Part shown: in pieces, positions 1,785 to 45,139 of the stretch
How the letters are laid out: each line of letters opens with the position of its first letter
Numbering within the stretch: the first letter of the stretch is position 1
IMG/VR virus record: IMGVR_UViG_2585427970_000001
Reading direction: 5' to 3' (one strand)
Origin: a virus
Lineage: Duplodnaviria; Heunggongvirae; Uroviricota; Caudoviricetes
DNA length: 64,000 nt
Program-made: the position numbers and the translations under genes
The notes under the pieces: generated by a model
Told to the model about the DNA's origin: nothing
Databases searched by the model: none
The model's input: the letters and a program-made list of their open reading frames with translations, nothing else

Positions 1785-4700
1785 ATGAATAAAATATATA
1801 AAGTGATATGGAACCACAGTACTCAGCAGTGGGATGTGGTTTCAGAACTTACAGGTAACAAAAAAAAATGTAAATCTGCTCGCTTAAACCTGGCGTTAGC
1901 CGCTGCTCTTTTTACCGGATCTATGGCGGTTAATTGCAGCAGCGCATTCGCGGATATTTCTCTTGATTCGGCATGGCGTCCGGCACAGAACAACAACCTT
2001 GTTGGGGCCGAGACTGTTAACGGCACGACGGAAAATATCATAGGGCCGATATCGGTCGTTTCTGGTTCTTCTGGTCTCGTTGGCATGACTGTTGATGAAG
2101 CAAAAGCAGAGGGATACATTACGGCTGGGGATGATCTTACCGGATTATTATATATTGACACAGGCGGAAGAACCAAAGCCCTTCAGTACTGGGATGCTGC
2201 GACCGGCGCGTACAGAACGGTACAGGTATATGACAATGACGCTTTTTCTCAGCGGGCTGCAGGCTCATCTGCGAATGAACTCATTTCCGGTTTTGCGCCT
2301 GATGCTGGTTTTTTCTATAAAACCCGTTTTGTTACTGTAACCAATGGTGGTACGGCCAATATTGATGTTGGCGCAGATTTTATTGGTCGCTATTTCAAAG
2401 ATACTCAGCTCGCTGTTGCTGATGGAGCTGGATCAACTGTTAACTGGAATTCTGAAAATGAGTTCTACTTGCAGGCCGCAGCAACTTCTACAAACGGGCT
2501 CACATATACCGCCACAATTGACTCAAAAGCATATGCTGGCACATTTACTGACTGGCAGGGACAACAGCATCAGGTTAATTCACAGGCAGACTTACAGCAA
2601 TATAATGATTATCTGACTCAGGCGATTGTTGACGGTAAGCTGACTGCCTCTCAGTATGAGACTGAATTTAACAGGGCTATTATAACCACCACGCATACGT
2701 ATGATGTTGATCGTACTGCAGGGGGTAAAATTGATCCTGCTATATATCAGGCTGGTATCGGAACACTTGCTGTACTTGAAGCTAGAAATGGTGGAACTGC
2801 ACGACTCAGTTCAACCGGCAAATTAACAGGCATATTGCCGAGTGTTGGGCGTGGAGCTGGTATCATTGCTCGCTCGGGCGGTACAGGTATCAACGAGGGT
2901 ATTATAGATGCTACAGGTATTGCGATGCGTGCATACGGTAACAGCACCATTGTTAATGATGGCACTATCTATTCAGGGATCAACAATTCTAAACACGGAC
3001 GACATGGTGAGGGAATGGTGGCAATTGATGCCGATTCCCTCGCAATAAATAATGGTGTTATTAATATCCGGCCATATAAAGTTGCAACAGTTAATCAGGA
3101 TGGCATCAACACGGCAATGCTAGTGGCTGGTGGCGGTGAAGGAATTAATAATGGCACCATCAATATTACGGCGGATGCTTCAGTTATTGACAGTAAGGGA
3201 CTAACCCGGGGGATCAGTGTGGGTGACGGAGGTTCCTTTACCAATGCATCCACTGGCAAAATCACCGTCGGTGTGGCTGAAGATGGCAGCGCAGCGCATT
3301 CAGCTGTCGGCTCTGTTGCGATTGAGGTTGCGCAAGGGGCAACCCGTGTTATTAATGAAGGGACAATTCTCCTGGGGGAAGGGGCTCAGGGGAACTACGG
3401 TATTTCAGCATCGAACGTCGGAGCAGTAAATACAGTCATCAATAAAGGGACTATCACAGTTGAAGGGCATGACAGCGATACACCTGCACTGAATGTCGGC
3501 ATGTTTGCAAATAACAGCACCGGGCTGAAAAACACCGGGGTTATTAATGTGAATGGCCTGAACAGTGCCGGATTACAGGTCATAAACGGAGGCCAGATAG
3601 CGTCTGACGGTACTGTAAATGTTGGTGGCGTGGATATCAGTAGTGGTTTCCGTAACTATGGTGCATGGGTGGAAGGCACCGGAAGCCGTGTTGATATATC
3701 CGGCGAAATTAGCCTTACTGGTGACGGTGCAGTGGGGGTTTTTGCCAAAGATGGCGGAGACCTGACCCTGTCAGGGAATGGTGCGGTGGTATTCGGTGGC
3801 AGTAACCAGGTGGGGTTTTATGTCTACGGTGATGGTTCCACCATTCATAATACCGGGAACAGTGTTATGGATGTTTCCACCGAAAATTCAACGTTATTCC
3901 GTATTGCCAGCGGGGCGGTATACCGGGGGGGCACAGGGGCATCCTCTGATCTGACGGCATCCGGTAAGAACTCGTATGCGCTTGTTGCCACTGGCAGGTC
4001 TGACACAGGCACTGCCTCAACCGTCACATCCGGAGGGATGACCATCAACCTGACGGGAGAGGGGGCGACTGCTGTCTTGGTAGAGGGCGGGGCACAGGGC
4101 TCAATTGACAGTAATGCCACTATCAATATGGATAATGCCAGCGCGATTGCCGGTATTGCGGATGGCAACGGGTATGATATTTCCGGCAATCTTATTAATC
4201 CAAAAGACAAGACTACATTATTAACAGCAGGTGCTCAGCTGAGCTCTTCTCAGGATAAAGTAACCGGGTATATCGCCCGCAATGGGGCAACCCTGGAGAA
4301 CACCGGTAATATCACCTTTACCGGAAAGAACACGACCGGTATCCGGGTCGAGGAAGGCGCTGCTGGCACCAACAGTGGAAATATCCTCGTTCAGGATGGC
4401 GGTGTGGGATTACTTGCCCGCGGCTCACAGGACGCCACGACCATTAATAACACCGGTAATCTGGTCCTCAGTGGGGGGAATAATGCCAACCGTACTACCG
4501 GGATTAAAGCTTCCGGTGCAGCAACAACAGTTAATATGACCGCTGGCACACTCGATCTGCAGGGGCAGGGGGCGATTGGCGTTGAGGTCAGTGAACAGGG
4601 AACGGTGAATCTTGAGGGGACTGCCATTCCTAAGTTTGCTGCTGACGATTCCGGCATTACCGATCAGATTGCTTTCCGTATTATCGGAGATGGTGCAACC

Positions 4701-39889: not shown

Positions 39890-41215
39890 CACCCTCCACG
39901 CCCTGACGGGCGTGGATTCCTGCTACGTTCAGGCTGTCGCCTGAATCATTTCGGTGGGTTCCTGCTTCAACGGGCGGCCTGACTGCACCATCCCTCCACA
40001 GGCAAGTACGGCGTGCCCCGCCGCTAAAATGTTACGAGCGCCGTTTACATCGGCGTTCGCTGTATATCCACATACCTGGCATCTGAATTTACTTTGTGAC
40101 AGGCGATTTTCTTTCGCTGTATGACCACAGCACGCGCAACGCTGGCTTGTGTACGCTGGCGGAACAGCAAGCACCTGACCGCCACGCCAGAGCTGCTTGT
40201 ACTCAAGCTGGCGGCGCATTTCATACCAGCCCTGATCCAGTATCGAACGGTTTAAACCTGATTTTGCCCGGACATTGCGACCCGGATGACTTATCGTTCC
40301 CGCCGCTGACTTTGACATGTATTTAACCTTCAAATCCTCAATGACAATCATTGCGTGGTTTTTGCTGACGGTCGTTGTGACTTTGTGAAGGTAGTCCCTG
40401 CGGATATTTGCGATACGGGAATGCAGTCGCTGTATTTTGCGTTTCTGCTTCTGCCAGTTGTTGCTGAATTTGACCTTGCGGCTTAACTGGCGCTGAAGTC
40501 TCGCCAGCTTTTTCTGGTTTTTCTGGAAACTGTTTACAGGCTCAAAGACTGTGCCATCTGACAGCGTGGCGAGCCTGGCCACGCCAGCATCCAGTCCGAC
40601 CATTGATGCTGAAGGGTGAACAGGAGTGGATACTTCACTTTCTGTCTGAATACTGATGTACCATTTACCGCAGGACTGGCTGACAGTGACATTTTTCACA
40701 ATCCCCGTGACCTGCCGGCTGTTCCGGTAGCGCACCCAGCCAAGTTTCGGCAGAAAAATACGGCTGTTTTCCTGGTCGAGCTTAACACCCTGCGGGTAGC
40801 GGAATGCATCATTCTGTCCCCGCTTTTTGAATCGGGGAAAAGCCGCCCGCTTCTGGAAGAAATTTTTGTAGGCCCGCTCAAGGTCTTTCAGTGACTGCTG
40901 CAATGGCTGTGAGGGAGAATCTTTAAGCCATTCGGTTTCAGTGTCTTTTTTCCACTCAACCAACCAGGAAGCCATTTTCGTGTAAGGGATGTATTTATTC
41001 CCGGCCTCATAATTTTCATTCTGAAGTGCCAGTGCACGATTGAAAACGAAACGACAAGCTCCGGCAAAGAGCCTCATTTGACGCTCCTGTTGACCACCGG
41101 GTCTTAACTGGAATTTAAATGCTTGTAGTCGCTTCATCCCACTATTTTAAACAAAAACAGTTAGGTGGAAAACCACGCCTTATATCCCCGCCCTGAAGGA
41201 CGGGATTTTACGGCG
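39888..41215 (-). mobile_element. IS200/IS605-family element, tnpB-only (IS1341-type), copy 1; boundaries approximate
   Basis: TnpB ORF plus conserved 3' end with hairpin CCACGCCC-N5-GGGCGTGG and terminal TGTCA; left end homologous (about 80%) to copy 2. Confidence 0.75.
39929..41137 (-). CDS. tnpB: TnpB (OrfB_IS605, RuvC-like with Zn-finger) RNA-guided nuclease homologue
   Basis: 402 aa; CxxC...CxxC zinc finger (CACCGH...CQVCG); about 97% identical to the copy at 48216-49424. Confidence 0.9.
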
Positions 41216-41516: not shown

Positions 41517-42074
41517 TTATTCATTGACAAGCCCCGTCAGGCAAAGCTGGCGTTCTTCTTCACGGCGAATCTTTAACCCGGGCAGGGGGACGCCGTTACT
41601 GTTCACGAAATCAGGGAGATGGTTACACATATTCACCCATTCCCCTTTCTGCGCCCACTTGTGGATGGACGTTTCTACTCGCATGCCTCGCGCTTTGCTG
41701 TAGTAGGTCCGTAAGCTATTGCATCCCATATTGAATGCCGCGCTTGTCATTGCACTGAAGGCATTATCGGGCATGTCTTTGCCCCGGAAGTGCTGATTAA
41801 TACAGCGTTCAGCGATCAGGATATTCTTTTCCCAATCAGCGGCGATTTGCTGGTCTGTTTTTCGCACACCCGGCGTTACCCCGTGTGTATTACCGATCCC
41901 GTCAGTCCATACCCCTGCCGGGCACATGTATGGATCACGTCGGCAACCTTCAGCGTTACCAATCAGCTCAAGCCCAGCCTGGTTGGTTCGCACATTGCCA
42001 TTACCCATCACGATGGTAATCATCACCGCGATAGCGCAAATTGCACCGCCTCCTGCGGCTGTTTTTCCCTTCAT
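41517..42074 (-). CDS. lyz: SAR-endolysin Lyz (T4-lysozyme-type with N-terminal signal-anchor-release domain)
   Basis: 185 aa from MKGKTAAGGGAICAIAVMITIVMGNGNVRTNQAGLELIGNAEGCRRDPY...; the ORF extends 33 codons upstream to 42173. Confidence 0.9.
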   Translation of the reverse strand: MKGKTAAGGGAICAIAVMITIVMGNGNVRTNQAGLELIGNAEGCRRDPYMCPAGVWTDGIGNTHGVTPGVRKTDQQIAADWEKNILIAERCINQHFRGKDMPDNAFSAMTSAAFNMGCNSLRTYYSKARGMRVETSIHKWAQKGEWVNMCNHLPDFVNSNGVPLPGLKIRREEERQLCLTGLVNE

Positions 42075-42207
42075 AAAGACCTCATAAGCGAATTTTTTAC
42101 GCTCCAGGACAAACACCCATTCACAGCCAATACCGACTGACTCGATCCCTTTAGAAGGCACAGGATAATGCAAATCACTTGTTAGCTACGTTTCAAAGAT
42201 ATACATT

Positions 42208-42224
42208 ATTGCTCTAATTAATTT
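42208..42224 (+). promoter_or_regulatory. C1 operator (16/17) in the lyz-ssb divergent intergenic region
   Basis: ATTGCTCTAATTAATTT. Confidence 0.65.
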
Positions 42225-42243: not shown

Positions 42244-42768
42244 GTGGCACAACGCGGTGTAAACAAAGTCATCCTGATTGGTACCCTGGGGCAAGACCCG
42301 GAGATCATGTATATACCAAATGGCGGAGCGGTCGGAAGACTCAGCATCGCAACGAATGAATCATGGCGCGACAAGCAAACGGGCCAACAGAAAGAGCAAA
42401 CAGAATGGCATAAAGTCGTTTTGTTCGGAAAACTTGCTGAAATTGCGAGTGAGTATTTACGAAAAGGTTCTCAGGTCTACATCGAAGGGAAACTTAAAAC
42501 CCGTAAGTGGACAGATGACGCCGGTGTAGAACGTTACACGACGGAAATTATCGTCAGCCAGGGCGGCACCATGCAAATGATCGGCGCTCGCCGCGACGAT
42601 TCACAATTCTCAAATGGCTGGGGGCAGTCAAACCAACCTCAAAACCTCAAAACCACCAGCAATACAGCGGTGGCAGTAAACCTCAGAGCAACGCCAATAG
42701 CGAACCTCCAATGGACTTTGAAGACGATATTCCATTTTGAGAGGGCTGAAAGTTGCTCGATTACTTAA
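42244..42768 (+). CDS. ssb: Single-stranded DNA-binding protein; frame disrupted near 42640-42660, canonical C-terminus in another frame ending at 42740
   Basis: N-terminal OB-fold [20 protein letters not shown]...[50 protein letters not shown]; ...[12 protein letters not shown] is read in the -1 frame at 42702-42740. Confidence 0.8.
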
Positions 42769-42873
42769 AAATAACTTTACCTAATTGGTGTAAAAAAATG
42801 GGCGCAACAAAGCGCCCCAACAATAGAGTTTCAAATTAATAAAAAGGTAATAAATAACATGAAGTTAAATTGA

Positions 42874-42960
42874 GAAGAGGCAATTTTATTGCCTCTTCAA
42901 AGGTGGCATGAGGGTGCCACCTATATGCGGGCAGTGACATCACTCCCTTCCCGCATATTC
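42874..42960. terminator. Cluster of three stem-loops between ssb and the porin 3' end (likely bidirectional terminators)
   Basis: GAAGAGGCAA-TTTTA-TTGCCTCTTC (42874-42898); GGTGGCA-N5-TGCCACC; ATATGCGGG-N21-CCCGCATAT. Confidence 0.5.
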
Positions 42961-42973
42961 TTACCTACCAAAA

Positions 42974-44086
42974 TTAGAATTGGTAGGTCATACCAACAGC
43001 AACGATGTTGTCGGTTGCAACCTCAGATCTTTTGGTAAATTCACTTTCATCAATCAGGTTGATCTTGTAGTCAACGAAAGCGGACATATTTTTGTTGAAG
43101 TAATAAGTCGCACCCAAGTCGATGTATTCAACCAGATCCTGGCTGCCGAACGCACCAATATTTTCACCGCGAGAGTGCAGATAAGCGATGGACGGACGCA
43201 GGCCGAAATCAAACTGGTATTGAGCAACAGCTTCAAAGTTTTTCGCCTTGTTCGCGATAAAGTCATCACCGAAGACAGTCATATTCTGAGTTTCAGAATA
43301 AGTTGCAGCCAGGTAAATGTTATTTGCGTCATATTTCAGGCCAGTAGCCCATACTTCAGCAGTTTTACCAGAAGCATTCAGAGGATCCTTTTTAGCATAG
43401 GATACCTGCCCATCAGTACGATCAGATTTTGCATAGGTTGCACCAACGCCAAATCCTTCATAATCGTAAGTAGCAGACAGACCAAAGCCATCACCATTAG
43501 ATTCAACTACGTCACGGCCTTTCCAGTTGTTCACTTTTGCAGCACTATCATTTTTACCTTGATACTGCAAAGCAAAGTTCAGACCATCAACCAGGCCGAA
43601 GAAATCATTGTTACGGTAGGTGGCTACGCCAGTAGCACGCTGGGTCATAAATACATCGGTCTGAGTCCAGGTATCTCCACCAAACTCAGGCAGCACGTCA
43701 GTCCAAGCGCCAATATCATAAGCTACACCATAGTTGCGACCATAGTCGATTGAACCATAATCAGCAAAACGGAGGCCAGCAAATGCAAGACGAGTTTTAT
43801 CTTTATCAGAGCCCTCAGATTCAGTACGGTTACCTTTAAATTCGTACTCCCACTGACCAAAACCGGTTAACTGGTCATTAATCTGAGTTTCACCTTTGAA
43901 TCCCAGACGAGCATAAGTCTTATCTCCGTCATCACTAGCTGAAGAAGAGAAGTAATGTTCTGCGTTAACTTTGCCGTACAGATCCAGTTTATTACCGTCT
44001 TTGTTGTAGATTTCAGCTGCTTGCGCAGACATTGCCATCAGGACAGATGCTGCAACCGCAGAGAGTGCCACTGTGATTTTTTTCAT
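42974..44086 (-). CDS. General bacterial porin, OmpC/OmpF/PhoE family
   Basis: 370 aa; signal peptide [39 protein letters not shown]; beta-strand-rich body; C-terminal ...VGMTYQF. Confidence 0.9.
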
Positions 44087-44195
44087 TTTTTTTGCCCTTT
44101 AGATTGAACTTTTCAGTAGAAAAGAAGTCACTGCGGACAAATGTTTATCTTTTTTGGATTCGTGTTTCAAGTTTTGCAAATAAAAATCAAGGTAT

Positions 44196-44217
44196 TTTTG
44201 TGATCAAAATCACAAAT
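44196..44217. promoter_or_regulatory. Candidate CRP binding site (perfect TGTGA-N6-TCACA) about 113 bp upstream of the porin start
   Basis: TGTGATCAAAATCACA at 44199-44214 within a 740-bp AT-rich leader. Confidence 0.5.
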
Positions 44218-44827
44218 AATAGCCTTGAAAACCCAATGGACTATTAGAAAAAACTCAATTCACAGAATAAAAATTGACAAAATAGATCAAAAAACAATCA
44301 AAAATAAGCACAAAAGACAAACAATTAAATTATCACAAAAATAATAACTGTCAAAAATAGATAGCCTGTTAATTAACAGGGCTTTAATGGATGTAGACTT
44401 GAAATCTACTTAAAAATTAGAATCAAATTAATTACTGCCGATTGGGTATTAAATTGAATCTATATTGTGAGAGTTAAAGACGATGTGTTTTAGTTATAAA
44501 TGTTATTCCCTAAAATGGAGCGGTCTCATCGAATCCTGATTAATAACGAGCTAAGCTAATTCATTTTAGTATGTGTATATCTTTACCCTCTGAATATGCA
44601 ATAAAGAAGAGATATTAAACAATATGTAGCTTCAGGATTGACTCTGGAAGAATTAAAAGATCGACTAAAGTGTTCAATATGTGGTGAGCGAAACGCAAAA
44701 ATTAATTTTTTTTGATCTAACATATTAGGTAACGGCTTGCTTCCATAACCTAAAGCAAGCCACTACGCGTTTACTTTAAGTACACAATTAACATATCAGA
44801 ACAGATTATTTTTGCACAATCAGGGAG

Positions 44828-45139
44828 TTAATATACGATCTGGTCTACATGATCACCAAAATCATCATCGTCGTCGTCATCATCGCCACCATCTACTGCT
44901 GGCCAATCAACAAACCAGCCAGCGTAAAGATGCAGCGTTCGGAGAACATCACTTGCGGGAGCATCAAGGGTGTTAACGAATCCCATATAGCTATTGGGAT
45001 TTGCCCCAGCTATGGCTTCAGCGATCATGTCCTCGGTAATGTCACCGGAGATAATGCTTAAACGCCCGGAAACTTCTTCATTATCATCAAATTCGATAAT
45101 GGCATCTCCGCCTAATGGCGCTGCGATTTTAATCTGCAT
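44828..45139 (-). CDS. IddB-like small acidic protein (dar operon, by position)
   Basis: 103 aa with C-terminal poly-Asp tract; overlaps the ddrB stop. Confidence 0.4.
   Translation of the reverse strand: MQIKIAAPLGGDAIIEFDDNEEVSGRLSIISGDITEDMIAEAIAGANPNSYMGFVNTLDAPASDVLRTLHLYAGWFVDWPAVDGGDDDDDDDDFGDHVDQIVY

Follow-up and report, generated by a model that had tools for sequence, protein, structure and literature searches.

Why would a P1-like phage-plasmid carry a gene for an outer-membrane porin? The question is raised by a 64,000-nt stretch of viral DNA (IMG/VR record IMGVR_UViG_2585427970_000001, Caudoviricetes; hereafter the window), in which a complete porin gene lies on the minus strand among phage genes. 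Our analysis points, with reasonable probability, to a P7-type nmpC cassette that is housed in variable region RD-2 of the phage-plasmid and works as a porin-replacement module of the kind represented by lc of phage PA-2. A predicted role in lysogenic conversion is well supported by homology: the resemblance to lc, which the initial annotation had suspected, extends over the protein (clade and signal peptide), the promoter (alignment of the CRP site), and the 3′ untranslated region (3′UTR).

Both the gene and its location were already known. In phage P7 (GenBank AF503408 / NC_050152), the same locus, flanked by ssb and odaA/hxr, contains a gene annotated "nmpC: NmpC precursor" whose signal peptide spans 69 nt, and the literature on P1-like plasmids records this gene as well (PMC6906374). 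Over 42700–44900, nucleotide identity to P7 is ∼95%, and Escherichia phages JL22 and phi456, together with dozens of plasmids, match the segment at 100%. What our analysis adds is the exact limits of the cassette, the clade of the protein and its likely Escherichia origin, evidence of selection, a conserved CRP geometry, and a 3′UTR of the ipeX type.

It is useful to establish how much of the locus is foreign to P1. In blastn comparisons, P1 homology is lost after position 42740, the ssb stop codon, and regained at 44607, in the 3′ end of isaB, which places the cassette boundaries at 42740/42741 and 44606/44607. Between these limits, and between the conserved ssb and hxr, the cassette stands in place of P1 isaA-IS1-isaB. 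It is thus RD-2 cargo, since the ssb-hxr interval is the variable region of P1-like plasmids that bears this name and is a hot spot (Venturini et al. 2019, PMC6906374). The porin gene lies, as the initial annotation had it, between ssb on one side and the dar operon (hxr-ddrB-ddrA-darA) on the other, an arrangement that is the same in P7 and JL22. The inserted region was drawn too wide, however: the DNA next to hxr is P1 backbone, with 94.7% identity beginning at P1 locus position 3525, which falls inside isaB. Nor does the porin occupy this position in all P1-family genomes. It is missing from P1, RCS47, and SJ46. Among 331 PLSDB records, 99 contain at least 80% of the segment and 232 match the backbone flanks alone, so that ∼30% of P1-like plasmids carry the cassette. 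Their hosts include Escherichia, Salmonella, and Klebsiella, and the cassette is present in 92 of 5,426 complete E. coli genomes.

What kind of porin does the cassette encode? The open reading frame is intact, as had been claimed from its signal peptide and C-terminal YQF. The 370-residue product, in which a 23-residue leader is followed by AEIYNK and the last residues are MTYQF, matches Pfam Porin_1 (PF00267) over model positions 1–337 of 337 (E = 3.9e-148), and residues 24–370 match the solved structures of OmpC, Omp36, and OmpK36 with E ∼1e-135. The N terminus is the same as that of P7 NmpC, and the mature porin chains in the PDB align from residue 24. Translation and alignment show the features of a general porin, namely a cleavable signal peptide, a PEFGGD constriction-loop motif, and the C-terminal YQF.

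The label "OmpC/OmpF-type" originally given to the gene holds in the sense of a general porin and is otherwise too broad. A neighbor-joining tree that included OmpC, OmpF, PhoE, NmpC, and Lc, the phylogeny that the initial annotation had proposed as a check, places the window protein within the NmpC/Lc/OmpD clade, apart from OmpC, OmpN, PhoE, and OmpF. Amino acid identities follow the same division: 96% to P7 NmpC, 90% to a chromosomal porin of E. fergusonii, 81–84% to DLP12-type NmpC and PA-2 Lc, and 76% to OmpD of Salmonella and Citrobacter, versus 62% to K-12 OmpC, 62% to PhoE, 60% to OmpN, and 57% to OmpF. The 62% identity and the position outside the OmpC/OmpN branch rule out an ortholog of chromosomal ompC. 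RefSeq nevertheless calls the protein "porin OmpC" because it passes the broad NCBIfam subfamily model of that name (530 versus a cut-off of 484); it fails the equivalog models for PhoE (495.5 versus 599) and OmpF (452.1 versus 583). The signal peptide is of the MKK(I/L)TVA..SAQA type shared by PA-2 Lc and DLP12 (qsr′) NmpC, whereas that of OmpD differs.

Variation among the relatives is clustered in five protein stretches, which, from general porin topology, we take to be external loops L4–L8. The L4-equivalent stretch is 7–10 residues longer in the window, P7, and E. fergusonii proteins than in NmpC, Lc, and OmpD. Relative to the P7 allele, the window gene has 14 substitutions and a 1-residue indel (among them a changed stretch at residues 233–235 and single changes at 276, 315, and 353), and 6.3% of coding sites differ. 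Between the two alleles, dN is 0.022 and dS 0.233 (dN/dS 0.09). Purifying selection has therefore acted on the protein in the P1/P7 lineage, which rules out cargo in decay.

The cassette does not end with the protein. The stop codon of the porin gene is followed by a structured 3′UTR, closed by an intrinsic terminator (coordinates in Table 1), with a minimum free energy of −67.5 kcal/mol (z = −6.6); none of 200 shuffles was as stable. Independent folds of five relatives, including DLP12-type nmpC, PA-2 lc, and E. fergusonii, gave the same stem layout. The base of hairpin 1 (HP1), AUAUG...CAUAU, is conserved among relatives. The stem of HP2 varies by compensatory changes (GGUGGC/GCCACC, GGUAGC/GCUACC, AGUGAC/GUCACU) beneath a CCCUCA loop common to the P1-type, the common nmpC/lc, and the E. 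fergusonii sequences, with a single variant, CCCUAA, at locus L055. HP3 retains its shape despite a wholly different sequence. In a MAFFT/RNAalifold alignment of seven 3′UTRs, HP1, HP3, and the terminator were misaligned between types, so that covariation was undercounted (7 of 35 pairs); we therefore used the independent folds and a covariance model in its place.

This model, R1, was built from lambdoid nmpC/lc and E. fergusonii 3′UTRs, with P1-type sequences left out. It gave a single match in the window, at 42794–42959 (minus strand), at 69.3 bits (E = 3e-19) and over the full length of the model. It also detected the 3′UTR of an insertion sequence (IS)-flanked porin gene on an E. coli chromosome (locus L003; see below), and it found nothing significant at the ompC, ompF, phoE, ompN, and Salmonella ompD loci. 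Salmonella OmpD, although in the same wider clade and with a CRP-like half-site upstream, has a short terminator-bearing 3′UTR of ∼55 nt that lacks the ipeX-type element. Consistent with the model, blastn aligned 42842–43008 (∼35 nt of the coding end and 132 nt of the 3′UTR) downstream of IS5 at the DLP12 nmpC locus of K-12, with 70% identity over 175 nt (E = 5e-8). A pattern scan for the 3′UTR motif across one-per-species genomes returned three E. coli stretches only. Thus, the window 3′UTR belongs to the nmpC/lc RNA type, from whose members it differs in the sequences of HP1 and HP3 and in a ∼19-nt insertion before the terminator.

The significance of this membership lies in what ipeX does. 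The gene was reportedly mapped to the 3′UTR of nmpC/lc by Castillo-Keller, Vuong and Misra in 2006, and its RNA is said to lower OmpC and OmpF; the same study is said to have found that the lc transcript likewise lowers OmpC/OmpF in PA-2 lysogens. IpeX is also named among the repressors of ompC in PMC3333887, which cites that study.

A different identity for the 3′ region, that of a GcvB-like small RNA, is hardly credible. The one match that Rfam returns in the region is to GcvB (RF00022) at 42792–42978 (minus strand), at 30.5 bits and E = 0.0004, which is below the gathering score of 42. Where the GcvB model has 43 positions separating its first hairpin from its second, roughly the stretch of the G/U-rich seed, the window has 14 unrelated nucleotides. 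Moreover, Rfam finds no match at the DLP12-type nmpC locus and holds no family fitting its 3′UTR, whereas the model built from nmpC/lc scores 69 bits in the window. The subthreshold score reflects a shared layout of several hairpins plus a terminator, not GcvB homology.

How the 3′UTR might act on OmpC and OmpF invites a further, speculative proposal, which we consider rather doubtful: the CCCUCA loop of HP2 may be an anti-Shine–Dalgarno kissing loop that pairs directly with ompF and ompC at their ribosome-binding sites, such that one RNA would both replace and repress. The evidence consists of a short match. Together with its closing bases, the window loop reads CACCCUCAUG and can pair with CAUGAGGGU in the ompF ribosome-binding site (−17 to −9) over 9 bp at −15.1 kcal/mol; none of 500 shuffled loops did as well. 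With AUGAGGGU at −67 of the ompC leader, it forms 8 bp at −13.1 kcal/mol, a value matched by 1% of shuffles. Pairing with the porin's own AAGGG site and with the phoE and ompN leaders is weak (−5 to −8 kcal/mol). The DLP12/PA-2 loop forms 6 bp with the ompF site, so that the P1-type complementarity is the longest. Duplex predictions for the full-length 3′UTR against the ompC and ompF leaders yielded meaningless structures with long interior loops and were dropped. The 2006 study of ipeX reportedly saw no obvious complementarity with the ompC leader. If true, a kissing loop would account for the mode of IpeX action.

Is the gene equipped to be expressed in a lysogen? Upstream of it lies the perfect palindromic CRP consensus that the initial annotation had pointed out, TGTGATCAAAATCACA. 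It is unique in the window; shuffled sequences lead one to expect 0.07 occurrences, and 7 of 100 shuffles had one. In an alignment of upstream regions from the window, P7, L003, DLP12-type nmpC, K-12 nmpC, and PA-2 lc, the palindrome falls in register with the CRP site that GenBank J02580 marks in front of lc. A perfect TGTGA-N6-TCACA is located at −127/−128 from the ATG in the window, P7, L003, and E. fergusonii. Its spacer varies among relatives (TTTTGA, CCTTGA, CTGTGA), and in the lambdoid lc/nmpC genes the left half-site is degenerate (AGAGA...TCACA). Conserved half-sites with free spacers are the pattern that selection on a CRP site would give.

Downstream of the CRP site, the CTTGAAA block of a predicted σ70 promoter and its spacing are kept in all relatives compared, as is the GCAGTGAC block that follows the −10 element in all versions aligned. 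From this layout, transcription probably starts near 44135, ∼49 nt before the ATG; the center of the CRP site would then fall at about −71.5, in class I geometry. The homology shared with E. fergusonii and nmpC begins at 44150. The "740-bp AT-rich leader" of the initial annotation is thus correct as an AT-rich gap, of 741 bp, to the next upstream gene, hxr (44828–45139, minus strand); with the start that we infer, only some 50 nt would be leader and most of the gap would be intergenic DNA. GC content is 25–34% over 44100–44800, compared with 42–48% in the porin gene and flanks. No C1 operator occurs from 42225 to 64000, the nearest being that of ssb (42208–42224); therefore, the phage repressor should not silence the porin in the prophage state.

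In effect, the following series of events can be envisaged. In the plasmid-prophage state, the porin would be transcribed from its own weak σ70 promoter, free of C1 control and activated by cyclic AMP–CRP bound at the consensus site. The precursor would be exported by its signal peptide to yield a general-diffusion porin of the NmpC/Lc/OmpD type, and the 3′UTR on the same transcript may, by analogy with nmpC/lc, lower host OmpC and OmpF post-transcriptionally. The net result would be a porin swap that alters both the use of OmpC/OmpF as receptors by phages and colicins and the permeability of the outer membrane. P1 itself adsorbs to lipopolysaccharide rather than to a porin; the targets of any exclusion would therefore be colicins and phages other than P1.

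Several observations weigh against this scheme and lend weight to two alternatives. First, the gene may be quiescent, mostly silenced (for example, by H-NS on AT-rich upstream DNA combined with a poor −10 element) and of little consequence to the lysogen. The −10 element is poor, and a stricter promoter scan listed no minus-strand promoter at the porin; this would fit a weak, activator-dependent promoter without proving one. The upstream DNA is 25–30% GC over 44100–44600, the kind silenced by H-NS, and literature cited by PMC3333887 describes nmpC-type genes as quiescent in some strains and counts nmpC and ompN among the quiescent porin genes. Weighing on the scheme itself, the gene is dispensable: ∼70% of P1-like plasmids lack the cassette, and the "P7 nmpC" copy in pSvP1 is broken by IS10 (PMC6906374), a disruption that also suits quiescence. 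Quiescence is nonetheless quite unlikely, in our judgment: the protein has evolved under selection in the P1/P7 lineage, as a dN/dS of 0.09 at a dS of 0.23 shows, and the perfect CRP site persists although its spacers vary.

Second, an Escherichia porin could be kept as cargo for the host's benefit only, for nutrient or antibiotic permeability, with no phage exclusion and no trans-acting 3′UTR. The closest nonmobile relative of the window gene is the E. fergusonii porin, which is chromosomal and sits among housekeeping genes outside any prophage. Its nucleotide homology covers only 44150–42973, with a dS of 0.79, and it has the same long L4-equivalent stretch, perfect CRP site, and 3′UTR type. 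The last two are therefore features of the gene lineage rather than phage-specific adaptations. The location of the cassette in a cargo hot spot (PMC6906374) suits this view, as does the nature of the P1 receptor. Two further points bear on the porin-replacement scheme itself. The 3′UTR differs from that of P7 at 0 of 182 positions (the AT-rich distal DNA upstream of the CRP site diverges by 5.9%), an identity that may result from strong constraint or else from recombination with a breakpoint at the stop codon; in the second case, it need not stem from selection. The searchable literature contains no functional, expression, or phenotype study of the P1/P7 porin. Against a purely host-serving role stand the signal peptide, promoter, and 3′UTR held in common with the lambdoid lc/nmpC genes; the 3′UTR, more tightly conserved than synonymous sites; and PA-2 lysogeny, which is said to lower OmpC. 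We regard such a role as unlikely, somewhat less so than quiescence, and continue to favor a porin-replacement module.

The two carriers of this module differ. Here it is a P1-like phage-plasmid, whereas in lambdoid phages the gene is found between Q and the lysis genes. Recombination between the two types of cassette is evident. In L003 (E. coli chromosome NZ_CM188249.1, 3990–5460), a mosaic porin gene flanked by IS elements has a P1-type promoter, 5′UTR, first ∼100 nt of coding sequence, and 3′UTR (85–94% identical to the window), joined to a coding core that mostly matches PA-2 lc at 94–100% identity, with a dip to 86% in a single 100-nt bin. The E. fergusonii locus (CP058057.1, 4369–7113) contains two tandem porin genes, with vsr, an HD-domain gene, and a DrpB-family gene as neighbors. 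The relative of the window gene is the second, whose perfect CRP site is at −127; the first lacks the upstream features.

P1-like phage-plasmids are common in E. coli from humans and livestock, and resistance genes are often part of their cargo. If the OmpC/OmpF swap is true, strains with the cassette would show changed sensitivity to phages and colicins dependent on OmpC or OmpF, of which there are many, as well as changed β-lactam entry and surface antigens. The gene itself is no news; what is useful is the map of the cassette, the evidence of selection on the protein, and the CRP site and ipeX-type 3′UTR as regulatory elements that can be tested.

Table 1. Features of the porin cassette and its border, in window coordinates
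Feature	Position	Strand	Basis or detail
Whole porin cassette, 1.87 kb	42741–44606	−	blastn against P1
Structured 3′UTR, ipeX type, 182 nt	42792–42973	−	Covariance model and folds
Intrinsic terminator, GGGCGC...GCGCCC plus T run	42800–42817	−	Terminator scan and folds
Conserved single-stranded motif, AAC(C)UUC(A)UGUUAUWUAUUACC	42846–42866	−	Comparison of relatives
HP3	42874–42898	−	Fold
HP2, loop CCCUCA at 42909–42914	42901–42922	−	Fold
HP1	42923–42958	−	Fold
Porin coding sequence, NmpC/Lc/OmpD clade	42974–44086	−	Open reading frame, Pfam, tree
Signal peptide, 23 residues, cleavage after AQA	44018–44086	−	Match to P7 NmpC annotation
Probable 5′UTR, ∼49 nt	44087–44135	−	Starts at GCAGTGAC block; Shine–Dalgarno AAGGG
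Predicted σ70 promoter	44142–44170	−	−35 TTGAAA at 44165–44170, 17-bp spacer, weak −10 TAAACA at 44142–44147
Perfect palindromic CRP consensus, TGTGA-N6-TCACA	44199–44214		Pattern search and alignment
AT-rich distal upstream DNA, 392 bp, 25–30% GC	44215–44606		Common only to P7-type cassettes
P1 backbone, isaB 3′ remnant and hxr-proximal spacer	44607–44827		Outside cassette

The AT-rich distal DNA contains an inverted repeat, CCTGTTAATTAACAGG, at 44365–44380, followed on the minus strand by a T-rich run; this repeat could block read-through from the dar operon. A second short inverted repeat, GTAGACTTGAAATCTAC, is present at 44392–44408, also between hxr and the porin promoter. Within the same DNA, JL22 is annotated with a gene, gp17 (window 44225–44344, plus strand), which is a lysine-rich, 39-residue reading of AT-rich sequence that we did not take as a gene.

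Finally, two features of neighboring genes deserve mention. In ssb (42244–42768, plus strand), an 8-bp tandem duplication at 42635–42650, consisting of AACCTCAA twice and found in neither JL22 nor P1, shifts the frame. The protein consequently ends in ...ERAESCSIT, and the acidic DDIPF tail, which ends at 42740, is out of frame; either ssb is a pseudogene here or the sequence contains an error. Farther away, a 402-residue TnpB-type protein with OrfB_IS605, Cas12f1-like TNB, and HTH_OrfB_IS605 domains is encoded at 39929–41137 (minus strand), adjoining the lysozyme gene (41517–42173). In two other P1-like plasmids, IS609 lies between the head-processing and lysis operons (PMC6906374).

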